Source: Candidatus Thorarchaeota archaeon (GTDB lineage Archaea > Asgardarchaeota > Thorarchaeia > Thorarchaeales > Thorarchaeaceae). From it: a DNA stretch of 37,689 nt. Position 1 is the first letter of the stretch. Every line of letters begins with the position of its first letter. The DNA is taken from contig JAEORO010000214.1 in the NCBI GenBank assembly GCA_016840855.1, forward strand, positions 1 through 37,689. Reading direction: 5' to 3'. The notes below the pieces were generated by a model that did not search any database, was not told the DNA's origin, and saw nothing but the letters and a program-made list of their open reading frames with translations. Below, piece by piece: positions 7,346-25,964 of the stretch. The translations under genes were made by a program, and so were the position numbers.

Positions 7346-7951
7346 TTACCAGTCTTCTTCTTCGTAGTCTTCGAGACCCCAATCCTCGCCTTCTGGGATT
7401 CTCATGACTCCAAGTTCTAGAAGGCGATCCATCACTTTCTCTGCAGCCTCATCAATCTGTGGTTCGAACTTTGCACCTGTTATGACAAGCTTTCCAGAAC
7501 CGAATAACAGAATGACAACCTTTGGGTCTCGCATTCTGTAGATTAGTCCTGGGAACTGCTCTGGTTCATACAGTGTGTTCTCTAGCTTCATAGCTGCAAG
7601 CTCGAGATTAAGTTCTGCTCCTAGACTAGCACTTGCAACAATATTCTGGACAACAATAATTGGTTTGCCGGTAATTTCAATACCAGCTTCCTTAATGTTT
7701 TTGACTATCTTGTGAACTGCACGCTTTGCTTCCTTCTCGCTCTTTGCCCCGGTGCATACCATCTTTCCTGAGTTGAAAATCAGAGTTGCTGTCTTGGGTT
7801 TCTTAAGACGGTACACTAGACCGGGAAATTGCTCGGGGTCGAACTCGACATTGGGCATAGTAGCCGCAATCTCATCGAGATCAAGTCGCTGATTCAAAAT
7901 TACAGAAGCGACAACGTTTTCTATCTTTGTCTTTGGTTGTGGACGTGGCAT
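7346..7951 (-). CDS. tbp: TATA-box-binding protein
   Basis: Two TBP repeats (ENVVAS...EQFPGLVYR...LIFNSGKMVCTGAKS; QNIVAS...YEPEQFPGLIYR...LLFGSGKLVITGAK) and an acidic C-tail. Confidence 0.98.
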   Translation of the reverse strand: MPRPQPKTKIENVVASVILNQRLDLDEIAATMPNVEFDPEQFPGLVYRLKKPKTATLIFNSGKMVCTGAKSEKEAKRAVHKIVKNIKEAGIEITGKPIIVVQNIVASASLGAELNLELAAMKLENTLYEPEQFPGLIYRMRDPKVVILLFGSGKLVITGAKFEPQIDEAAEKVMDRLLELGVMRIPEGEDWGLEDYEEEDW

Positions 7952-8095: not shown

Positions 8096-8467
8096 TCAAC
8101 AGTCGCTGTCGTTTCTCTTGATAACGATGACTTTGACTTTGACATCTTCTGCAATGTCCCCGAAGGCTTGAAGGAAGTATTTAGATGCGTCTGCCAATCC
8201 CTCCTTCCCTTTGGGCGTCAGATGATATATTATCTGTCTACCCTCTCTGCGACCTTTGATGAAACCTCCCTCTTTTAGTTCCTTCAAGGCGGGATAAATA
8301 GTGCCTGGTGTTGGTTTTGTCCCTCTTCTTGTAGCAATCTTCTCTGCTATCTGTTGGCCATTCATTTCTTCTTTATCAAGCTCCCAAAGGATTTGAAAAG
8401 TAAGGAGTCCTCTCATATCGCAGCACTCAGGGGGACAACATGCTTCACTATCCTTCGGGTCGCTCAT
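8096..8467 (-). CDS. PadR-family winged-helix regulator with N-terminal CCxxxCC
   Basis: MSDPKDSEACCPPECCDMRGLLTFQILWEL...PTPGTIYPALKEL...YHLTPKG. ATG at 8467; the track's longer N-terminus runs through the promoter. Confidence 0.9.
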   Translation of the reverse strand: MSDPKDSEACCPPECCDMRGLLTFQILWELDKEEMNGQQIAEKIATRRGTKPTPGTIYPALKELKEGGFIKGRREGRQIIYHLTPKGKEGLADASKYFLQAFGDIAEDVKVKVIVIKRNDSDC

Positions 8468-8474
8468 GTAAAAA

Positions 8475-8534
8475 TATTGGATGTCCGATACATTTAAATG
8501 TATATATAGGATGTCCAATATTGGACACCCAATA
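8475..8534. promoter_or_regulatory. Bidirectional promoter with three 16-bp pseudo-palindromic operators
   Basis: TATTGGATGTCCGATA (8475), TATAGGATGTCCAATA (8505), TATTGGACACCCAATA (8519); perfect palindrome ATACATTTAAATGTAT at 8488-8503. Confidence 0.75.
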
Positions 8535-8548
8535 TAGATGGTGATTGA

Positions 8549-8692
8549 ATGGCTGAAAATAGAACTCATAAAAAAGCAGTTCCGAAATGTGGAATCAATA
8601 ATCAAATGAATTCTAGAAGGTCCTGTCAACTATCAGTGTGTGGTGACTATAAATTATCAGTAGAAAATCCTATGAAACTGGTGATAGCATGA
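8549..8692 (+). CDS. 47-aa three-cysteine peptide, translationally coupled to arsM; not in ORF track
   Basis: MAENRTHKKAVPKCGINNQMNSRRSCQLSVCGDYKLSVENPMKLVIA*; GGTGA RBS at 8540-8544; its stop overlaps the arsM start (ATGA, 8689-8692). Confidence 0.55.
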   Translation: MAENRTHKKAVPKCGINNQMNSRRSCQLSVCGDYKLSVENPMKLVIA

Positions 8693-9519
8693 CGAAAATG
8701 AAGAAAGTAAGTGAAATGAAACCTGATGAGATTAAAGATGCAGTTAGAGATGCCTACTCTCGTGTAGCGAAGGAAACCTGGACTCCGGATGAACAAACAC
8801 CAAATTGTAGTGATGCAAGTTGTGGTCCTGCACCAAGTCAAACATCCTCAAGTTGTTGTGGTCCTCAGCAAGAAGTCAAAGTCACAAGAGTAAATCTTGC
8901 AGAAGCTCTTGGATATGATACTGAAGGTATGCCAACAGGTGCTACTGAATCCTTCGCTGGGTGTGGAAATCCTGTTGCACTTGCTAGTCTCAAAGAAGGC
9001 GAGGTTGTCCTTGATCTTGGTAGTGGTGCTGGCTTGGATATGTTTGTTGCAAGTAAGAAGGTCGGCGAAACTGGAAAGGTAATTGGTGTAGATATGACTC
9101 CCGCAATGATTGAGAAAGCAAAGCAAAATGCTGAAGAATTAGGAATCACGAATGTTGAATTTCGCTTTGGTGATATTGAGGATATGCCAGTTGAGGATAA
9201 TTCTGTTGACGTTGTAATTAGTAATTGTGTCATTAACTTGGCTCCTGATAAAGGCAAGGTGTTTCGTGAAGCTTATCGTGTTTTGAAACCTGGCGGTCGT
9301 GTGATGGTGTCTGATATAGTCCTCTCTAAACCATTGCCACAAGAAATTCGAGATGAAGTTGTGACGTACACTGGCTGCATTGGAGGTGCAATTCTTGATG
9401 AAGAGTATCTTCAACACATGCGTGATTCAGGATTTCATGATGTCCGGATCACTAGCAAGGCTGGACAGAGTCTCTACGGTGCATATAGTGCATACATTGC
9501 TGGATCAAAGCCTGAGTGA
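8689..9519 (+). CDS. arsM: Arsenite S-adenosylmethionine methyltransferase
   Basis: GCGNP, VLDLGSGAGLD, SNCVINL, GCIGGA and N-terminal SCCG motifs. Confidence 0.92.
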   Translation: MTKMKKVSEMKPDEIKDAVRDAYSRVAKETWTPDEQTPNCSDASCGPAPSQTSSSCCGPQQEVKVTRVNLAEALGYDTEGMPTGATESFAGCGNPVALASLKEGEVVLDLGSGAGLDMFVASKKVGETGKVIGVDMTPAMIEKAKQNAEELGITNVEFRFGDIEDMPVEDNSVDVVISNCVINLAPDKGKVFREAYRVLKPGGRVMVSDIVLSKPLPQEIRDEVVTYTGCIGGAILDEEYLQHMRDSGFHDVRITSKAGQSLYGAYSAYIAGSKPE

Positions 9520-10346
9520 AGGAGAGTTATTTTTTGGATTTTGAGGTTAGTATGGAAACCAGCGGAAATCTTGTCAAAGTGCCTGTCGGTGTCAATGGTC
9601 AAGGTCCTTTCATCTTTGACCTAGACACTGGCGCATCAGCGACAACCCTTTCCAAAAAACTCGCTGAAAAGCTTGGAATCGAAATTCGTAAAAGCAATCG
9701 TTCTGATGCACGTGGTATTGGAGGAGGAGTCCCTACTGAATTCGCAGACGCAACCATCAATCTTGGCGCTCTTGAATTTGAAGTGGATGAGGTCTATGTC
9801 CTAGATCTTGACTCAATGTTACGTTGCGCTGGTGAGCACGGTGGAGTGTTAGGATATACAACTCTGAAGCATTGTACGATGTCACTCAGTTATTCTAAGA
9901 AACGCTTCAAATTGAGCAAAGGTAGTTCCTCATTAAACCTTGAATGGGGAAAGTTCCATTACATCCAAGACACGCACCTTATTGGAATTCCGGTTCATAT
10001 AAACGGAAGCGGCCCCTATGAATTCGTTCTCGATACTGGGGCTGGTAACAGTGTAGTTACGCCAGAACTAGCTAAGAAGCTGGGTCTTGAAGCCAAAGAA
10101 TTCCCTGGTATCGCCCGTGGAATTGGTGGGGATGTTCAACTAAAACTTGCTCCGGTAGAAACATTATCAGTTGGATCAGCACAAATTGAGAATACCCAAT
10201 TAGTCGTTGTAGATCTCTCGCTTGTGTCACCCAAGGGAAAACTGATTGATAATGGTATCATCGGATATGACTTTCTCAGGAATTTTGAAACTATCATCGA
10301 TTATCCCGAACAGCAGTTTTCGTTTATTGACGAGCGCGATTCGTAG
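9516..10346 (+). CDS. Aspartyl protease with two tandem retropepsin-like domains
   Basis: FDLDTGAS...GVLG and FVLDTGAG...GIIGYDFL. GTG start overlaps the arsM stop; alternative ATG at 9552. Confidence 0.88.
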   Translation: MKESYFLDFEVSMETSGNLVKVPVGVNGQGPFIFDLDTGASATTLSKKLAEKLGIEIRKSNRSDARGIGGGVPTEFADATINLGALEFEVDEVYVLDLDSMLRCAGEHGGVLGYTTLKHCTMSLSYSKKRFKLSKGSSSLNLEWGKFHYIQDTHLIGIPVHINGSGPYEFVLDTGAGNSVVTPELAKKLGLEAKEFPGIARGIGGDVQLKLAPVETLSVGSAQIENTQLVVVDLSLVSPKGKLIDNGIIGYDFLRNFETIIDYPEQQFSFIDERDS

Positions 10347-16062: not shown

Positions 16063-16959
16063 TCACTGGTTAGACTGGAAATTATTATTCTCTTCATCTC
16101 CAGTGCTCAACGGACTTACTAGTAGTCCTTCTGAAGTTGCTTTTAGAACAACTCGTTTCTTGATTCCTGCTAAGCGTCTGATCGTTTCTGGAATCACCAT
16201 TCGCCCCTTCGCATCAATTTCCGTGATGTCACCATAGAGCGTGTGTTTCTGTCCCTCAATGAGACCATCTCTAATTCTCAAGACCCTATCTGCATACTCT
16301 GCAACTCGTGGATTATGGGTGACATTGATGATGGTTGTTCCAAATTCTTCGTTAGTCTTCTTCAGGGCTTCCATGACCATCTCAGTTGTTTCACTATCCA
16401 GCTCTCCTGTAATTTCGTCTCCCAGTAGAAGTTCCGGTTTGTTTGCTAGAGCCACGCAAATTGCACATCTTTGGTTTTCTCCTCCAGACATTTGATTTGG
16501 CTTATGGTGTGCTCTTGGACCCAGTCCCATTGTATCAAGTAACATCTGAGCTCTTTCATTTGCGAGCTTTGTTGGTGCGCCCGCGAGTTTCATAGGTAGA
16601 GTGACATTCTTGAATGCTGTTAGACCAGGTACCAGATTACCAACTTGCCAGATGAAACCGACTTTCTGTCGTCGATAGAGCATGGACCTTCTGTCATCAA
16701 GGATAGAAACGCTGTGACCATCAAAGAGAATCATTCCTGCTGTGGGTTTATCTAGTGCTCCCAACATCTTAAGTAAGGTTGATTTTCCTGACCCACTAGG
16801 TCCAACAATTGATAGGAACTCACCCTCACGCACTTCGAAGTCAACTCCTCTTAAGGCAATGACCTCTTTCTGTCCCCGCCTGTAGACTTTCATTAGGTCT
16901 CTAACAACAACCTTGTATTGCTCCGCGATTTCATCAAGATTTTCTGTCATGATTTTCAC
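16063..16959 (-). CDS. LolD/MacB-type ABC ATPase with C-terminal AbrB/SpoVT-like domain
   Basis: GPSGSGKS, MSGGENQR, LLGDE and VTHN motifs; tail TEIDAKGRMVIPETIRRLAGIKKRVVLKATSEGLLVSP. Confidence 0.9.
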   Translation of the reverse strand: MKIMTENLDEIAEQYKVVVRDLMKVYRRGQKEVIALRGVDFEVREGEFLSIVGPSGSGKSTLLKMLGALDKPTAGMILFDGHSVSILDDRRSMLYRRQKVGFIWQVGNLVPGLTAFKNVTLPMKLAGAPTKLANERAQMLLDTMGLGPRAHHKPNQMSGGENQRCAICVALANKPELLLGDEITGELDSETTEMVMEALKKTNEEFGTTIINVTHNPRVAEYADRVLRIRDGLIEGQKHTLYGDITEIDAKGRMVIPETIRRLAGIKKRVVLKATSEGLLVSPLSTGDEENNNFQSNQ

Positions 16960-19826
16960 CCTGTATATTGAATTTCCTCTGCGATATTGAGCTTAAGTGC
17001 TCGAGACACAACAACATATGTTGCCAGGAGAGACACTATCACAGCAGTACCAATTATTCCTATTAGCAATGGCCAAGGTACTACGAGATTTACTGGAAGT
17101 CTTGTCCATAGCTGATTAGTTGATAGTCCCATGTATAATAGTGGTATGTCTTTTAGTAATAATGCAAGTACAGTTCCCAAAGCCCCACCTATTAATGCTG
17201 CCAGCAGTATTCCAATTGATGTATCAGCTAATGTCGCTACAATCATTGATTTAGTTTCAGCTCCTAATGCCCTTAGAACGGAAAACTGCTTTCTCAGATT
17301 TCTGATTCTGACAGCTGTAACAATAATCATCCCGAATGTGAGATAGATAATCGAGAATATGACATTAAGTGTATACGCTCCAAAGATTGACTGTGTGGCT
17401 CTAGAATCAAGAACTTCATCAATCGATTCTTGAGCCGCTTTTATATCATTGAAACTTGATGGTGCAATGTTGTAGATGTCAGTCATTACTTGAGTATAGT
17501 TAGCATCTGGTGTGAGATCGATATAGAATTTCGTCACACGTGTATTATTAATCCAATTATGTAGTAAACTGATATCCATGATTAGAAAATCAGAAATATC
17601 TGGTTCACCTGGGAAGTATGTATTCTGAATATAACCTCCGATACCATTTGTCATAAGATCAACAATTGTGCAGCTAGTTTCATTATACCATGTAGGACTA
17701 AAGACCTGCAAATCAAGCAATGGAGAGTATTGAGGTATAGGCATACGAGTGACTGGATCGATAGTATAATAGCTAACTGGCTTAAATGTGGTAATGATGT
17801 TGATGCCATCATCTGATGAATCGTTTAGCTTTGGTATGGATAATTGAGGTCGGTCATAATATGTGAAATAATCAAGCCAAAAGGCAGTTTCAATCCAAGA
17901 GTTCGGTTGAACTCCAAATACCGAAATTGAACGATTGACATTTTCCCCTCCGCCGTAGGCATATGCATTCCAATACTGAACATAACCCATGACCTGAAGT
18001 ACCGGACTCACTTGAGCAACGCCGCTAACTTCAGTTATATTTTGAATAAGGTTCATAGTGACATTAGTTAGAGTAGGATCAACTTCAACAGTGATATCAG
18101 CTCCAGTTTCAAACAGGAATACATGTTTCATATGCATATCTCCAGTTGTGGCTGAGAGTGAAGCAAAAAGACCTGCTGTGAAAACCATCGCGATAAACAT
18201 TGTTCCAATAGCTTCAGACTTCTTGAACATCCGAGTTGTCCTTGATATGAGACGAGCGCCAACAACTAATGAGGGTCGTTTAATCCTCGATAGCAACCTC
18301 GACTTAATAATTGCAGTTCCTCTTGACAGCAGCCTAGTAAAGGAGTAAAGAAAGATAGCCATCATAGGTATAATGGTCATTGCAAAGAATGTTGATGCCA
18401 TTGTCGATAAACCGCCAAATGCAAACATAAACATCAACATCAATAGGAGATATCCTGAAACTCCCATAACTAGCATATCGATGGCTGGACTCGCCATTTT
18501 TTCTGATTCAGTCAGAATTTCTCCTTCAAGAACATTATGTGCTTCTGTGGGAGTCATAAGGAGAGCTTTGACAGCAGATGGCATAGCCACGATTAAACCT
18601 ACTATGAATGAAAATGAGAAGACAATAATTATAGCTGTGGGCTCAAGTAACAGGGTGAATCCAGATAGTTGGTCAAAACTGAACACCAGAAGTTCTCTTA
18701 CAGAACCAGACAGAATAGCCGCTAAGAGTCCAGTAAAAACTGCACCTAAGCTCCCAATAATTCCAGTAGTGACTGCACTACTTAATACCCAGAGGAATGC
18801 CTGTATTCCTGACGAACCTCTAGTCTTGATAGTACCAACATCTCTACGTTGTTCATCAGTCAGAAGTTTTGAGTTGTATTGTATAAGCATGACTCCCATG
18901 ATTATCGATGGTATCGAGAACGCAATAGCAACTGCTCGCACACTCATGGACCAAATAGCAAATTCATAAACTGCGTTTTGAATTTTGTAAGAATCGTATC
19001 GAATTATACCAAATGGCAAGGTTTCCTGTTCAATCTGTTTCTTTATGTTCTGAAGGATTTCAATCATTGCTTCTGCATCATTTTGGATAATTCCCATTCT
19101 ATCAAACTTGACCCAGATTCTATCTTGAATACCGTAATAGTCATCATGTGGAAGAAACCCAAATGTTGAGTTCAGTGCTTCAGCAGTAGTAATAATTTGT
19201 AGATATGTGACTTCAGGTTGATTCCAGTACTGTTCCATCATGTAAATATTTGAAATGAATGTGCCAACAATTATGAATGACTTCTCTATTTGAATTTCAG
19301 ACCAATTTCCATCTGACCAATCCTCAACAGTTATGGATACTGTATAATTTCCACCTAATTCAAGGCCTTCTGAGAGAAATAGGCTATTCTCCACAAGACA
19401 TGAATCATTATCATAGGATAAAGTTCCGCTATTCAGATTGATTGCATCAGGAAATGTTTCAAATGCGGTACTATTTATTCCCAAGAATCCTCTTCTACTA
19501 TATCTATAATCTTCAGCATACCAGTCATACATGTTCACGAACGTTATAGGTTCTGTAGCAACTACATAATCCTGCGATTCAACTATCTCTCTAATTTCAT
19601 CAAAAGATGTCGAGCTGGGATTAGAGAAGTTTTGAATATAGAATTGATAACCTAATGAAACCTCCATATCAATTGGTACATCCGCAGTCATGTCGTTAAG
19701 GACAGTTGGGGCGGTGGAGTCCATGTAGAATAGAATTCCACCAAGAACTCCACTTGATAATGAAAAAATCAAGAGTGTTGTCAGAACTTCAGGGGCTCGC
19801 GCAGATAAACGTGCGAATAGAAACAA
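16956..19826 (-). CDS. FtsX/MacB-like ABC permease (duplicated architecture)
   Basis: QRRDVGTIKTRG and LRKQFSVLRALGA coupling motifs; two large extracytoplasmic domains. Confidence 0.88.
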   Translation of the reverse strand: MFLFARLSARAPEVLTTLLIFSLSSGVLGGILFYMDSTAPTVLNDMTADVPIDMEVSLGYQFYIQNFSNPSSTSFDEIREIVESQDYVVATEPITFVNMYDWYAEDYRYSRRGFLGINSTAFETFPDAINLNSGTLSYDNDSCLVENSLFLSEGLELGGNYTVSITVEDWSDGNWSEIQIEKSFIIVGTFISNIYMMEQYWNQPEVTYLQIITTAEALNSTFGFLPHDDYYGIQDRIWVKFDRMGIIQNDAEAMIEILQNIKKQIEQETLPFGIIRYDSYKIQNAVYEFAIWSMSVRAVAIAFSIPSIIMGVMLIQYNSKLLTDEQRRDVGTIKTRGSSGIQAFLWVLSSAVTTGIIGSLGAVFTGLLAAILSGSVRELLVFSFDQLSGFTLLLEPTAIIIVFSFSFIVGLIVAMPSAVKALLMTPTEAHNVLEGEILTESEKMASPAIDMLVMGVSGYLLLMLMFMFAFGGLSTMASTFFAMTIIPMMAIFLYSFTRLLSRGTAIIKSRLLSRIKRPSLVVGARLISRTTRMFKKSEAIGTMFIAMVFTAGLFASLSATTGDMHMKHVFLFETGADITVEVDPTLTNVTMNLIQNITEVSGVAQVSPVLQVMGYVQYWNAYAYGGGENVNRSISVFGVQPNSWIETAFWLDYFTYYDRPQLSIPKLNDSSDDGINIITTFKPVSYYTIDPVTRMPIPQYSPLLDLQVFSPTWYNETSCTIVDLMTNGIGGYIQNTYFPGEPDISDFLIMDISLLHNWINNTRVTKFYIDLTPDANYTQVMTDIYNIAPSSFNDIKAAQESIDEVLDSRATQSIFGAYTLNVIFSIIYLTFGMIIVTAVRIRNLRKQFSVLRALGAETKSMIVATLADTSIGILLAALIGGALGTVLALLLKDIPLLYMGLSTNQLWTRLPVNLVVPWPLLIGIIGTAVIVSLLATYVVVSRALKLNIAEEIQYTG

Positions 19827-22631
19827 CTACACGTCACCTCCATATGGAGCTGCTTCAGCCCATGTTGCATTCAATGTTGATGCAAGATTAATTCGTGACC
19901 CAAGCACAGCTACAATTCCGATGAAAATCACCACTGATACAATGAAAAACGCAAGAACCGATAGAATAGTGCTCCAAGGAATCACTGCAAAAATAGGGAC
20001 AGGGTATATAGTGTACCAAGAAGCCATTCCAGTTGAAGATGAAGCAATGGATGTTGTCAAATACATCGGAGCATAAACCAGTAGGACAATAATGCTGAAC
20101 AACATTAAGACAAGCATCTCTGCTCCTTGAGCTCTTACAATGACTCCAACATCAGCTCCGTTAGATCGCAGGAGTGCAATCTCTCTTCTCCTCTCACGTA
20201 CTCCTTCCAATGCATAAACAGCAAAGGCACCCATAATTGTGCCAACTGTAAGAACTGTCAACATTGTATCAACCGCTCTATCCATATGGTATGATACTTG
20301 GCTTAGATATTCGCCAGTCCTTGTAGTTACCGAATCCCAGGTCCCTTCCCAGAGTACTTGCATTCCTCCATGATTAAGTACATCACGCACAATTTGAGTT
20401 CCATTTGCTCCTTTAACAGTTGAAACACATAGAAATGAATCAGTTTCATTAACAATGTTGATGTGTGTGCTGAGGAAGTCACGATTTACCAATACCCTCT
20501 GCTGACCCACAATCTGATAGTAACTTGGATAAAATGGCGTTGGACCTATTGGTATTGCATCATAGTATATCCAATCATCTCTTGCTGGCATCTCAGGGAT
20601 AGATGTAACAATTCCAAGGATTCTGAAAGAGATCGGTATTGTATCCCCGGAGAGTTGAGTTGCACGCATGATGTCTCCGACCTCAAGATTGAAGTCGTTC
20701 GCAATGTCTGAAGATATTATTGCGCCATCTGGAATTGACGAAAGAGATTCTAACATTCCTCCCATTTCGGATTCATTCAATCTATTACCCAAATAGTGAT
20801 ACCCAATTTTTGAGTACTCAGTAGGATTGACTGCTAGAAACGTATTTCGTCCCTCATATCCGCTAGTCAGATACAAATCAATCTCTGACACTACCGTACT
20901 AGAAGCAACTTGTCCATGATCTGTGACATTTGATATGAAATCGTTCCAGAGATCATATTGCGAACTATCAAGTGCAAATGAAATGTCCGCACCAACACTC
21001 AATCTTGATTGGTATTCAACAGTCACTGGTAACGACGCATCGATGAGAGCACTGTTCCATGAAAGGCATATTGCCAGAACCAGAACCATTGCAGCAGCCC
21101 CGCCAGATGATGCGCCTTTACCAATTCTACGAATGCCTATGGAAGCTGATATTGGCCCAACTATTTTTGTCATATATTTTGATATGATGGTTGAGCCTCT
21201 CCTAAGTAACTTTATTGATAGACTTGCAACTCCAAGAAAGAGTGGGAGTGGAATAATTGGAAGGATCAATCCCAATATTGGATCACTAACGACCGTAGTT
21301 CCTCCAGTAGCTAGAGCGAGTAGAAGCAAACCAGATATCAACACAACTAGTAAATCCCATCTGATGAAGTTGAAACCTTTTACAAGCTTGGCAATTTTTC
21401 CTGTGTTTTCATCAACTGATTTCTTGGTCGAGTAGATCACTCGATACCCACCTAATGTCATCACTGGCAAGATAATCCCAACAAGGACTGAGATTATCAA
21501 TGATTCAATAGAAATCAGAAATGGCTCAGTAATCATCAAATTAAAATTAAAAGTGAAGTATCCGCTGGATGATATTGCTACCCTACTAATTCCTATTCCG
21601 GCGAATATCCCTATGATACAAGAGAGAATAGACAGGATGAATATTTCTCTATTTATAATCTTGTCAAGATCCCCAGTTGCCGCACCTCTTGAGTATAACA
21701 CACTTGACTCGTATCTTCTCTCGTTTACATTATGCCGAATTGCGAGAAATGTGACAAACACAATTAAAACTATAATTCCAGAAGACCTGAAAAGTTGAGC
21801 CATCCTGGCTACCTGAATCCAATACATGTATTGATTAATCGCATCTGCAATATGATTTGACACCCAGTATCTAGACGACCATGGATATTGTGGGTCATAG
21901 TAAGGGTCAAGCTCCCTTATCGCTTGCCCAATCCCGGAAACATATGCTAATGAACCGCCTGCGTTGAAAGGAGTAACTCTAGATCTATCAATATCAATGA
22001 AGACTCTGTGGTTTATTTCTGACATGAGATCTGGATTTACGATTGCGATACTATCATATGACCAATAGTATTGATTGGAAATCTCTGAGTCACCTTGTTT
22101 GTAAACTCCTATGATTTCAACCTCTTGTAAATCATAACCCCAATATGGAGTGAAATTCACAACATCTCCGATATTGAACCCATAATATTTGACGATGCCA
22201 TCTATTACAGCAATTTGCGAGCTATTTGCTCCGGGGAATGCTCCGTCAACGAGTGTGATATAGCCTGGGAATGTATCCATGAACTCTTGAGAAGGTGCTA
22301 TGATGTCCCCAAAAATTAAGTCCTGCCAAGATCCCCACTCGTCAGTATACCAATACTCGATACCTCCCATACTAGTTTGAATTGCCGCAGCCTTTGTGAC
22401 TCCATCGATGTTTTGGATACTGCTGACGTAATTCTGTATGGTTTCTCCTTCTGCAAACATTGCTATTGGTCCAACATCTGCCATATTATTATCCCACTCA
22501 TGGACTGAGTAAGAATCAACATACACTGTGATGCCCATAGCCATTGCAGACGCGAGCAGAAAACAGAGAAGTGTAACACCTTTGCGTCTTACACTATGAA
22601 ATGCCTCATAGCCTGCTGGTACTGCGGCCAT
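19827..22631 (-). CDS. FtsX/MacB-like ABC permease (duplicated architecture)
   Basis: ERRYESSVLYSRGA and ERRREIALLRSNGA motifs; two large extracytoplasmic domains. Confidence 0.88.
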   Translation of the reverse strand: MAAVPAGYEAFHSVRRKGVTLLCFLLASAMAMGITVYVDSYSVHEWDNNMADVGPIAMFAEGETIQNYVSSIQNIDGVTKAAAIQTSMGGIEYWYTDEWGSWQDLIFGDIIAPSQEFMDTFPGYITLVDGAFPGANSSQIAVIDGIVKYYGFNIGDVVNFTPYWGYDLQEVEIIGVYKQGDSEISNQYYWSYDSIAIVNPDLMSEINHRVFIDIDRSRVTPFNAGGSLAYVSGIGQAIRELDPYYDPQYPWSSRYWVSNHIADAINQYMYWIQVARMAQLFRSSGIIVLIVFVTFLAIRHNVNERRYESSVLYSRGAATGDLDKIINREIFILSILSCIIGIFAGIGISRVAISSSGYFTFNFNLMITEPFLISIESLIISVLVGIILPVMTLGGYRVIYSTKKSVDENTGKIAKLVKGFNFIRWDLLVVLISGLLLLALATGGTTVVSDPILGLILPIIPLPLFLGVASLSIKLLRRGSTIISKYMTKIVGPISASIGIRRIGKGASSGGAAAMVLVLAICLSWNSALIDASLPVTVEYQSRLSVGADISFALDSSQYDLWNDFISNVTDHGQVASSTVVSEIDLYLTSGYEGRNTFLAVNPTEYSKIGYHYLGNRLNESEMGGMLESLSSIPDGAIISSDIANDFNLEVGDIMRATQLSGDTIPISFRILGIVTSIPEMPARDDWIYYDAIPIGPTPFYPSYYQIVGQQRVLVNRDFLSTHINIVNETDSFLCVSTVKGANGTQIVRDVLNHGGMQVLWEGTWDSVTTRTGEYLSQVSYHMDRAVDTMLTVLTVGTIMGAFAVYALEGVRERRREIALLRSNGADVGVIVRAQGAEMLVLMLFSIIVLLVYAPMYLTTSIASSSTGMASWYTIYPVPIFAVIPWSTILSVLAFFIVSVVIFIGIVAVLGSRINLASTLNATWAEAAPYGGDV

Positions 22632-22646
22632 TTTCCTTTTCCTCCC

Positions 22647-23333
22647 TCATGGATTCTCTATCATGCCATCTCTCATTCTGTATACATGATCCATTTTTTC
22701 GCCTACTTCTGGGTCGTGAGTCACCGTGATTAGAGTGCCTCCTTCACCTTTTGTCAGTGAAACTAAAATATCCAGAATCTCTTTTCCAGTGTTATAGTCG
22801 AGGTCTCCTGTAGGTTCATCTGCAAGAACAATGACAGAACTTGTTGTACCAGGCGGTTTAGCCAGAGCTCTCGCAATCGCGACTCGTTGCTGTTCTCCTC
22901 CCGACAGTTCATCCGGACGATGCTCAGCTCTCTCCGTTAAACCAACAAGAGATAGCAAGTGATCAACACGGTCTTTTCTCTCATCTTCTGCAACGCCGCC
23001 GATGAGTAACGGGAGTTCTACATTCTCATATGCAGAAAGAACAGGTAAGAGGTTAAAGAATTGAAACACGTAGCTAATCTTATTCCGTCGGACTCTGGTC
23101 AGCTCCCCCTCATCCATGTTCGTGATATCAACTCCATCTAGGACGACTCTACCGTGCGTTGGTCTGTCGAGTGCGCCTATTAGGTTCAGTAATGTAGTCT
23201 TTCCTGAGCCGCTCGGTCCCATAATACCAATGGCGCTTCCTCTTTTGATTTCGAGTGAAACACCTCTCAAGGCGTGAACTTCAATCTCACCCATGGAATA
23301 TACTCTTGATACTTCATCGAGGTCAACAATCAC
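22647..23333 (-). CDS. LolD/MacB-type ABC ATPase
   Basis: [30 protein letters not shown]. Confidence 0.93.
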
Positions 23334-24641: not shown

Positions 24642-25964
24642 TTAAGTAAAACCATGTCCTATTGTATTTTCAAACAGATGAGCAGCTGTAGAAAAGACTT
24701 CTTCAACACCTTCACCAGTGGTACAAGACGTTTCAAGAAATGCGACTGGATGAAGGGCTGCATCATCTCCATAACGTTGAGCTAGCTCTTCTGCAAATCT
24801 GAATCCTTCATCATACCCAACTGGTTCATCTCCCGAGTCCTCACCAGCTTCAGTCCTAAGATCGATTTTGTTTGCCACAATTACGAGTGGTGGCATATCC
24901 TCTGTTGATAGTGTGGCTTCTCTCAGCCAAAAATCAATGCTCTCAAAACTCCATCGATCAGATGCGGAATAAACTATAATCAAAACTTGAGCGTCCCTAT
25001 AGAACTCCTTTCTCTGCACTTTTGCTTTAACAGCAAGATCGAATGACCATACTCTCATTTCAACACGATGACTCTTGCAATCGAAAATACGACCAAAAAT
25101 ATGGTCTGACACAGAACCATCTTCCAGTTTTATTGGAACGATTTCTGCTTTTGCCTTCAGAGTTTCTTTTCCAACACCATCTTCTCCCAACAACAATGTC
25201 TTACATTCAACAATGGGTTTAATCTGATGGGCTGGGACCTCTTGAGTTTCTATTTCTTCGTCCAGTTGCTCTTCTTCTTCGATAGTTTCTGCGATAAGCT
25301 CAATCTCTTCATGTTCAACCTCAATTTCAGCTTCTGGGACTTCTTCTTCAGGTTCTATTATTTCACCAATCCTTGCAAATGATTTTTCGGACGCAACGAT
25401 TTCCTCATTTCCAGCTAGGTTGATACTGATTTCAGCTTTCTTCTCTACAGGTTTCTCCTTTGGTGCGCTTGTCATGAAAGTGTCGCTCAAAGATTCTACT
25501 GCTTGAAGTGCATCAGCTATATCATCAAAGTCTTCAACACTAATCTCGCCTTTCTTGTCAGCACTAACTCCTTGACTCTCAACAAATGTTGCTGCTTGAT
25601 CAGGAGCCTTTCTAAGGAAGCTTCTCTTTTTCTTCTCAGGTTTTTCAGGTTCAACTATTGATTCTGGTTCTTTCATGACTGGTTCTTCAGGAATCACTAC
25701 AGGTTCTGGTGCTTCTTTTTCTTCCAAAACTTCCTCTCTAATGACTCTTCTCGCTTTTGGAAGACCAATACGGTCCAGTACATCTTCAAGCACTCCAGGA
25801 GCCAATCTCTTGCCAAGGTATCGTATATATTTCTGCAGCTCTAGAGCGACATCGTCAAATGATCTCCCTTTCAAAGGAATCTTCTTTTTGACAACCCCCT
25901 TATCACGCACCTCAACATAGGTTGGAGTGAGCGTGAGTGAGATGGTTGTTCCCGGAATTATCAT
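24642..25964 (-). CDS. Rab/Ras-like small GTPase domain (degenerate) with long acidic N-terminal extension
   Basis: KTLLLGEDGVGKET, VWSFD, FYRDAQVLIIVY...SFESIDFW, VANKIDL, ETSC. Confidence 0.88.
   Translation of the reverse strand: MIIPGTTISLTLTPTYVEVRDKGVVKKKIPLKGRSFDDVALELQKYIRYLGKRLAPGVLEDVLDRIGLPKARRVIREEVLEEKEAPEPVVIPEEPVMKEPESIVEPEKPEKKKRSFLRKAPDQAATFVESQGVSADKKGEISVEDFDDIADALQAVESLSDTFMTSAPKEKPVEKKAEISINLAGNEEIVASEKSFARIGEIIEPEEEVPEAEIEVEHEEIELIAETIEEEEQLDEEIETQEVPAHQIKPIVECKTLLLGEDGVGKETLKAKAEIVPIKLEDGSVSDHIFGRIFDCKSHRVEMRVWSFDLAVKAKVQRKEFYRDAQVLIIVYSASDRWSFESIDFWLREATLSTEDMPPLVIVANKIDLRTEAGEDSGDEPVGYDEGFRFAEELAQRYGDDAALHPVAFLETSCTTGEGVEEVFSTAAHLFENTIGHGFT

Follow-up and report, generated by a model that had tools for sequence, protein, structure and literature searches.

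How is arsenic methylation controlled in archaea in which the gene beside arsM is not arsR? The question is raised by contig JAEORO010000214.1 of a Candidatus Thorarchaeota archaeon (assembly GCA_016840855.1), of which a stretch of 37,689 nucleotides (nt), here called the window, was analyzed. In the window, the arsenite methyltransferase gene arsM is divergent from padR, a gene for a cysteine-rich regulator, and lies between a small open reading frame (ORF) and a gene for an aspartic protease. A reading of these letters without any database search, referred to below as the sequence-only reading, had taken the four genes for an ArsR-independent unit of arsenic sensing, chaperoning, methylation, and proteolysis. 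Our comparison across genomes points to a narrower system. We put the probability at about 60% that the PadR-fold protein is a thiol-based repressor of arsM, for which As(III) or a comparable thiophilic agent would be the inducer.

A PadR-type regulator beside a true arsM

By family membership, the regulator is a PadR and not an ArsR. Its product of 123 amino acids (aa) scored 44.5 bits with PF03551, above the curated family cut-off of 27, and homologues of the same 123-aa length confirm the start of padR. With the ArsR model NF033788, it reached 28.5 bits against a cut-off of 55, which leaves it outside ArsR/SmtB, and neither HTH_5 (PF01022) nor HTH_20 (PF12840) matched it at E values up to 0.01. 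A profile search of the PDB with the regulator returned PadR chains (5dym, 5.1e-9; 3elk, 1.2e-8). An AlphaFold model (predicted local distance difference test score, pLDDT, 82.9) shows a winged helix and a single long C-terminal helix, the fold of PadR subfamily 2, with helices at residues 18-32, 37-48, 54-66, and 85-120 and strands at 70-75 and 78-83. The top Foldseek matches to this model were 3elk, 6qfd, 1xma, 5zi8, and LmrR, with a probability of 1.00, and the best structural matches are TA0346, RosR, Rv3488, and LmrR.

The cysteines of the regulator are C10, C11, C15, and C16 in an N-terminal tail that reads EACCPPECC, and C123 at the C-terminus. When 29 diverse members were aligned, C15, C16, and P13 were invariant and C11 and P12 were at least 90% conserved. 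The resulting motif, C-P-P-x-C-C, is near-invariant and directly precedes D-M-R-G, the start of helix 1. At the other end of the chain, many Thorarchaeota have C-x-C, and other lineages have the cysteine of a Y-F-C motif. The tail motif was not found in the PadR paralogues that were checked beside ABC exporters in the same genomes, and the palindromes near these paralogues differ from the padR operator. At five loci (L045-L049), longer PadR paralogues of 175-206 aa lie upstream of paired ABC exporter genes and have their own repeated TATCG-N-CGATA palindromes.

The sequence-only reading had named the divergent gene as arsM, and family models agree. Its product scored 316.8 bits with NF008823 (cut-off, 263) and 147.3 bits with Methyltransf_31, which places it in the family and among the S-adenosylmethionine-binding Rossmann proteins. 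It matched the solved enzymes 5evj (2.9e-41) and 4fr0/4fs8 (2.5e-33). The cysteines of its GCGNP, SNCVINL, and GCIGGA segments align with the As(III)-binding cysteines of 5evj and 4kw7/4fr0; on this alignment, it keeps the three arsenic-binding cysteines of the solved enzymes. C56, C57, C92, C180, and C230 are invariant in 27 orthologues, and the N-terminal region holds C40, C45, C56, and C57.

padR and arsM are conserved as a divergent pair

Linkage was followed in a set of 61 related genomes. A PadR orthologue was found in 36 of the 61, with E values of 8.5e-30 or better, and in all 36, arsM was present as its divergent neighbour (30/30 loci and 6 further genomes). The two genes are jointly missing from same-family G021 (71% complete), G031, G033, and G035. 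A wider set was built from one representative genome per species, and 80 loci with PadR relatives were kept. In 73 of the 80, the gene divergent from padR is arsM, and these 73 loci carry names from Thorarchaeota, Hermodarchaeota, Bathyarchaeota, Methanomethylicota, Hydrothermarchaeales, and Methanosarcinaceae. A neighbourhood survey of arsM was the check that the sequence-only reading had named for itself; in the PadR-bearing loci surveyed here, the linkage of padR to arsM is conserved. Judged from these sequences, the two-gene divergon of padR and arsM is the unit that is strongly conserved.

Outside the window's genus, the genes flanking the pair vary per locus, and no other ars gene was found there as a conserved neighbour. 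The identities of PadR and ArsM to the window's copies are correlated (Spearman 0.71 over 71 loci), a value that fits joint inheritance but would also simply follow phylogeny. Five arsM loci without this PadR were found in Asgard genomes of other families (L189-L193; genomes G040, G048, G052, and G058). Their neighbours are MazE/AbrB-like in two, HxlR-type in two, and TrmB with a CMD protein in one, and ArsR adjoins arsM in none of the five. The term "ArsR-independent" needs dividing: no ArsR adjoins the locus, as had been read, but the window's genome does carry one true ArsR/SmtB gene elsewhere.

On another contig of the same genome (C82:5201-6160; locus L180) is an ACR3-like arsenite carrier gene (281.2 bits; cut-off, 282.8) that adjoins thioredoxin-like, Fe-S, and DsbD-type genes. 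It was considered as a part of the system and rejected, as it has no padR operator and no adjacent ArsR.

Tail cysteines co-vary with the arsM neighbour

A profile search of 1.84 billion representatives found 17 proteins at E values up to 1e-30 and 303 at E values up to 1e-10, and many of the wider PadR matches have a single cysteine before D-M-R-G. For this "CDMRG" subfamily, 80 metagenome loci were fetched; the 51 with at least 900 nt upstream were counted, and the other 29 were left out. With one tail cysteine, arsM was the divergent neighbour in 0 of 22 loci, with two in 3 of 8, and with three or more in 17 of 21. When the tail ended in P-x-C-C, arsM was the divergent neighbour in every case (18/18). 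The four members with at least three tail cysteines that lack this neighbour belong to a different subgroup, "LCC". Relatives with one or two tail cysteines adjoin LUD-domain, DUF1512, Rieske, ABC-transporter, glyoxalase, or xylose-isomerase-like genes. This co-variation of the tail cysteines with linkage to arsM is the best argument for a thiol cluster that would sense the substrate of ArsM.

The metagenome contigs (L197-L276) also reveal a wider archaeal PadR subfamily in its own right, in which an invariant single cysteine immediately precedes D-M-R-G and the operator-like palindromes are of the same type.

As(III) is bound by three thiolates in ArsR repressors, and vicinal cysteine pairs are classical As(III) ligands. 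The position of the three-cysteine site varies among ArsR lineages, and biarsenical dyes are bound by the synthetic tetracysteine tag CCPGCC. On both counts, an As(III) site in the CC-x3-CC tail would be chemically reasonable.

Putative operators surround the presumed shared promoter region

The gap between padR and the small ORF had been read as holding a triple operator. It contains three 18-nt palindromes of the form ATATTGG-N4-CCAATAT, which surround the AT-rich stretch TTTAAATGTATATATA (coordinates in Table 1). When up to two mismatches to ATATTGGNNNNCCAATAT were allowed, the window gave three matches, all in this gap, against a chance expectation of 0.25. None of 100 shuffled windows reached three matches.

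Conservation of the operator was scored across loci by comparing 18-mers with the consensus and requiring at least 11 of the 14 specified bases. The 73 padR-arsM intergenic regions (12,364 nt) hold 177 sites, compared to 27 in the rest of these loci (434,601 nt), and 67 of the 73 regions have at least two. The consensus across loci is ATATTGGAYRTCCRATAT. A site upstream of padR is present in 72 of the 73 pair loci as well as in the 6 loci without arsM. In 41 of the 73 loci, the padR-proximal operator is followed, exactly 1 nt on, by the start of a TTTA[AT]A[TA] box, and the next operator site comes 4-30 nt later.

In archaeal promoters, the TATA box lies about 26 nt upstream of the start, with the B recognition element (BRE) on its upstream side. 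By analogy with this geometry, the AT-rich box of the window may be the TATA region. O1 would then lie over both the start of padR and the BRE side of the arsM promoter, and O2 and O3 would lie over the start on the arsM side. This placement suggests the layout of an autoregulated repressor. The idea that a cysteine-rich PadR, not an ArsR, is dedicated to arsM with operators between the two genes has gained strong comparative support.

A possible mechanism

From these elements, the following mechanism may be proposed. A small dimeric winged-helix PadR with the subfamily-2 fold would bind the 18-nt palindromes. The site between the TATA-like box and the padR start codon would give autorepression, and one or two sites that closely follow the box on the arsM side would block initiation there. 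As(III) most likely, and trivalent methylarsenic (MAs(III)) or Sb(III) possibly, would be bound by three thiolates of the flexible C-P-P-x-C-C tail. Metalloid binding would alter the dimer, the DNA would be released, and arsM would be switched on. In the window's genus, the transcript would also carry the upstream, translationally coupled 47-codon cysteine ORF, whose product may bind arsenic and hand it over, and it would probably include the downstream protease, whose role need not be related to arsenic. Elsewhere in the genome, a nitroreductase/flavin-reductase operon would be under the control of the same repressor.

The small cysteine ORF upstream of arsM

The small ORF of the window encodes cysteines at C14, C26, and C31, and no Pfam or NCBIfam family match was found for it, either ArsD-type or of any described family. 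Among the 30 related loci, six have a padR-arsM gap of 80-124 nt, three of them in the window's genus and three elsewhere, and 24 have one of 207-487 nt. All 24 long gaps, with an insert of at least 150 nt, hold an ORF of 39-53 codons in the same position. These ORFs start a few bases after a GGTGAT-type ribosome site, and in 22 of the 24, the end overlaps the next start by 4 nt. Over the 1,095 codons concerned, the remaining two frames contain 77 and 115 stops, a count that is biased because the longest frame was chosen per locus, and that used an alternative frame in L012 and L017. Given these frames, the small ORF is probably translated.

What its product does can be answered in two ways. 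One is that the ORF is a translated leader that couples or tunes arsM translation, or a neutral insertion remnant, and that its product does not bind arsenic; we give this a little less than an even chance. The product is poorly conserved, with a mean identity of 39% and only C31 at 90% or above, and its conserved C-terminus (M/T-V-I/V-x, stop) is merely the GGTGAT ribosome site of the next gene read as codons. The ORF is almost confined to one genus, and even there, it is missing from three genomes (L016, L031, and L032), as it is from most other lineages. The peptide was also considered as a diverged copy of the ArsM N-terminus, and this was rejected, as 24 peptides compared with 30 ArsM N-termini gave an hhalign probability of 0.65%. 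Against a leader or remnant, the frame has stayed open over 39-53 codons in all 24 loci despite many length changes, and at least two cysteines are retained in all 24 forms (the main-frame ORFs of L012 and L017 being counted). Free-standing copies of the cysteine-bearing ArsM N-terminus at the same place (L010, L018, L023, L025, L028, L034, and L078) also speak against it, and they suggest selection for thiol-rich products there. A thiol-based role of the small ORF is plausible, and a pure role in translational coupling is about as likely.

ArsD is the first arsenite chaperone described and hands As(III) to ArsA, according to the available text of PMC6205960. The small ORF resembles ArsD in that a small cysteine-bearing product is encoded just upstream of an arsenic enzyme and could bind As(III) and hand it over. 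It differs in that it has no sequence family, is 47 aa long, evolves fast, and is limited to one genus, with arsenic binding being hypothetical. A role of the peptide as an arsenic chaperone is possible.

Further mini-ORFs occur in this region. In six loci from genomes of the window's genus (L010, L018, L023, L025, L028, and L034), a second mini-ORF between the small ORF and arsM copies ArsM residues 1-58. These mini-ORFs of about 48-60 aa keep the invariant CC pair and stand between the operator and full-length arsM. Similar mini-ORFs are found in other Thorarchaeota (L075 and L078), and L112 has a peptide-like ORF. In a Bathyarchaeota locus (L120), a 66-aa predicted membrane mini-protein is encoded between the operators and arsM, in the position of the cysteine peptide of Thorarchaeota.

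A putative second target operon and the possible inducer

A whole-genome scan with the operator found one further cluster, two overlapping sites behind a TATA-like box. It precedes an operon for a nitroreductase (PF00881) and a flavin reductase (PF01613), followed by a TIGR04076-family gene (contig C168, ~8655-9860; L145:3001-4207). Two overlapping sites behind a TATA-like box precede this operon in 9 of 9 same-genus orthologues, and one site is present in G057. In comparison, 19 distant-paralogue loci (64,298 nt) hold 3 sites. In G047, the nitroreductase, a second methyltransferase, and the flavin reductase directly flank padR-arsM, and three more sites are present. An old-yellow-enzyme gene with a single site (contig C253) was rejected as a member of the regulon, since the site is kept in 0 of the 2 orthologues found among 41 genomes. 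On contig C110 (~5166; L146:3001), two divergent genes without a family flank a perfect 14-of-14 operator match; one of the two encodes a membrane protein of 124 aa with a 4-Cys motif at its C-terminus.

With a putative regulon that includes the nitroreductase/flavin-reductase operon, the inducer may be arsenite or, possibly, a broader class of thiol-reactive agents. The main rival to an arsenic switch follows this line: PadR would be a general thiol switch, released by disulfide formation or alkylation on contact with oxidants, quinones, nitro-aromatics, or electrophiles, with arsM as one member of a detoxification regulon and arsenic not the specific signal. HxlR regulators respond to redox or electrophile stress, and haloarchaeal RosR, a PadR-like protein that is among the closest structures, has a role in oxidative stress. 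In the other Asgard families, arsM adjoins HxlR-type regulators in two of five loci and ArsR in none, which would suit such a switch, as would the operators before the reductase operon, the arrangement in G047, and a P-x-C-C member beside an OsmC-like gene. We nevertheless consider this rival unlikely. The near-universal partner of padR is arsM, not a reductase, the extra cysteines appear just in arsM-linked members, and their vicinal pairs are of the classical As(III)-binding kind. In addition, the candidate site of the old-yellow-enzyme gene is kept in neither orthologue.

Several points weigh against a thiol-based repressor of arsM that is induced by As(III). What the sequences show is the gene families, the linkage, the conserved operators, and the co-variation of the cysteine motif with arsM; from these we infer that PadR binds DNA and represses arsM, and which agent would induce it. 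Seven of the 80 species-representative loci have PadR without a scored arsM; one of these is a cut-short contig (L072), and the other six (two Bathyarchaeota, two Hydrothermarchaeales, and two Methanoperedens) have unrelated neighbours. Three two-cysteine tails are linked to arsM, which shows that three tail cysteines are not strictly required. The P-x-C-C member beside the OsmC-like gene (L272, with only 700 nt upstream) has a partner of another kind. The counts of tail cysteines and arsM neighbours may not be independent because the arsM-linked clade may be a single lineage. Residues 1-17, which include the cysteine tail, are disordered in the model (pLDDT below 50), so no geometry of a cysteine site can be derived from it. 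The window's PadR has one C-terminal cysteine, compared to C-x-C in most relatives. Lastly, the place where a nitroreductase and a flavin reductase are typically found is a regulon of electrophile or redox stress, not a classical ars operon.

The protease downstream of arsM

A two-domain aspartyl protease had been read downstream of arsM, and the family search agrees: two stretches match PF13650 (113 bits in total; cut-off, 24.3), with a D-T-G motif in each (DLDTGAS and VLDTGAG). The protein falls below the cut-offs of two clan AA subfamilies, TIGR02281 (41.7 compared to 57.95) and TIGR03698 (32.3 compared to 57.35). Its two Asp_protease_2 domains with D-T-G motifs resemble the retropepsin-like proteases of clan AA; it differs from them in that a single chain carries both domains, fused into a pepsin-like pseudo-dimer, and that it is nearly confined to Thorarchaeota. 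The database holds 286 homologues, mostly of about 270 aa, and nearly all of those listed with a source name are from Thorarchaeota.

The protease had been given a start in a GTGA overlap with arsM. The letters are present at 9516-9519, but the orthologues point to a different start. At 20 of 22 orthologous loci, the protein begins with M/V/L-E/D-x-E-V/F/A/I (L053 and L071 begin differently), and this position corresponds to TTG 9534 in the window, seven bases after AGGAGAG (9520-9526). In the nearest relative, at 88% identity, the codon in the position of GTG 9516 is GTA, and the TTG is kept. The start is therefore probably TTG 9534, which would leave a gap of about 14 nt in place of an overlap between arsM and the protease gene. 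Such a gap is still close enough to fit co-transcription of the two genes.

Proteolysis had also been counted as a part of the arsenic unit, in which PadR would sense, the peptide would chaperone, ArsM would methylate, and the protease would act on one of them or on arsenic-damaged proteins. We find this four-part module highly improbable. In the window's genus, the order of peptide, arsM, and protease and the short gaps are kept, with the protease after arsM in 24 of the 24 loci that reach far enough and present in 27 of 27 genomes, and the peptide appears in the same genus as the protease linkage. Outside the genus, the picture is different. Among 33 genomes of other genera, this query found the protease only in G029 and G047, on a contig other than that of padR-arsM, and no protease was found within ~4 kb of arsM in the nine non-genus relatives examined. 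The 73 arsM-bearing loci of the 80-locus set have the protease adjacent in 21, all with the genus-type synteny, and at a distance of 2.2 kb in L094. Three loci, L016, L031, and L032, have the protease and no peptide. Because the housekeeping gene for the TATA-binding protein (TBP) shows the same genus-only adjacency, synteny at the level of the genus is no evidence for a role of the protease in arsenic metabolism. From its distribution, the protease is most likely a bystander.

Layout of the locus and other features of the window

The features of the locus are collected in Table 1. The divergence of padR from the three ORFs, the ATGA stop/start overlap at 8689-8692, and the three palindromes between padR and the small ORF are all as the sequence-only reading had them, and the cysteine clusters that it saw in the regulator, the peptide, and the ArsM N-terminus are present in the translations.

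Table 1. Features of the padR-arsM locus, in positions of the window
Feature	Position	Strand	Remarks
padR	8096-8467	-	123 aa; PF03551 match; divergent from the three + strand ORFs
3-Cys ORF	8549-8692	+	47 codons; Shine-Dalgarno-like GGTGAT at 8540-8545; ends in the ATGA overlap with arsM
arsM	8689-9519	+	276 aa; NF008823 match; arsenite S-adenosylmethionine methyltransferase
Two-domain retropepsin-like aspartic protease gene	9534-10346	+	~270 aa; frame open from 9516; likely start TTG 9534
Operator O1 (ATATTGGATGTCCGATAC)	8474-8491		Between AT-rich box and padR start codon
AT-rich box TTTAAATGTATATATA	8493-8508		Presumed shared bidirectional TATA region; read from sequence
Operator O2	8504-8521		Palindrome overlapping O3; arsM side, downstream of box
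Operator O3	8518-8535		Palindrome overlapping O2; arsM side, downstream of box
TBP gene	7346-7951	-	Directly adjoins padR

The adjacency of the TBP gene and padR is found throughout the window's genus and not outside it. Elsewhere in the window, positions 24642-25964 (- strand) encode a 440-aa protein that ends in a Ras/Roc small-GTPase domain (PF00071, 57.4 bits) and whose N-terminal half has no family. Positions 16063-23333 (- strand) encode two FtsX-type permeases of very large size (956 and 934 aa), each with an ABC ATPase partner. Database homologues of the proteins of this locus carry Thorarchaeota names, which assigns the window to an Asgard archaeon.

Discussion

The sequence-only reading was largely right in what it observed and partly right in how it interpreted it, and the actual finding is narrower and better supported than what it proposed. 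The closest known parallel is the pairing of ArsR with arsM. In its available text, PMC6205960 names ArsR as the regulator of ArsM, states that ArsR leaves the DNA in response to arsenite, and notes that arsM is often in an operon with arsR only. The ArsR/SmtB proteins (R773 ArsR, Acidithiobacillus ArsR, and Corynebacterium ArsR1) are, like the proposed PadR repressor, small dimeric winged-helix repressors encoded beside the ars genes that they control, often as a bare regulator-arsM pair in the available text of the same source, and have a cluster of at least three cysteines, the presumed As(III) site. That the position of this site differs between ArsR lineages means that such sites arise repeatedly. 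The PadR of the window differs in its fold family and in the location of its cysteines, which lie in a disordered N-terminal tail directly before helix 1. Its operator differs as well, being an 18-nt palindrome placed around an archaeal TATA-like box. By analogy, the padR-arsM pair would work like an arsR-arsM pair.

Within its own family, the regulator shares fold and size with LmrR, Thermoplasma TA0346, Rv3488, and haloarchaeal RosR of PadR subfamily 2, as well as a putative palindromic operator beside its own gene and a predicted target of the detoxification type. Known members of this subfamily bind drugs or phenolics or respond to oxidative stress. A highly improbable reading is that a metal with a structural or sensing role (Zn, Cd, Cu(I), Hg, or Fe-S) sits in the cysteine cluster, that the regulator responds to this metal or to redox state, and that arsM is co-regulated for another reason: four to six cysteines per chain, in CC-x3-CC and the C-terminal C-x-C of many Thorarchaeota or the YFC cysteine of other lineages, and ligand-complexed PadR-fold structures such as Rv3488 would suit it, but the C-terminal positions vary by lineage while the tail motif is constant, no metal-transport gene was found as a conserved neighbour, and a literature search on Rv3488 with cadmium found nothing.

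The sequence-only reading had not recognized the system as described, and a literature search found no PadR-type arsenic regulator or PadR-arsM link, with most subscription journals outside its scope, which is not proof of absence. The available part of PMC10060404 reports that arsM is carried by Asgard archaea, Bathyarchaeia, and some methanogens and does not mention regulators there. In Exiguobacterium, the available part of PMC6016940 gives only a predicted network link of a PadR-like protein to an arsenic-related protein. What sequence comparison brings out is a padR-arsM cassette that spans archaeal phyla and has a defined operator and a cysteine-rich tail that is a putative sensor.

A bolder proposal can be made, which we hold tentatively and at somewhat less than even odds. 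In it, archaea of several phyla would sense arsenite via a PadR-fold repressor whose natural tetracysteine tail (CC-P-P-D/E-CC) stands before the DNA-binding domain, a second, independent arsenic switch that travels with arsM. The Thorarchaeota cassette would have gained thiol-rich mini-proteins, some of them copies of the ArsM N-terminus with its CC pair, that feed ArsM, and the switch would also command the nitroreductase/flavin-reductase pair.

Arsenic methylation in anoxic sediments and paddy soils shapes the mobility and toxicity of arsenic. If arsM-bearing archaea use a PadR-fold thiol switch in place of ArsR, arsR-based surveys would overlook how a large share of their arsM genes is regulated. 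The compact regulator and its defined 18-nt operator would be usable as an arsenic biosensor part. The operator allows the regulon of arsenic or thiol stress to be predicted in uncultured archaea, and the pair would be a clean new case of convergent metalloid-binding sites on different DNA-binding scaffolds.

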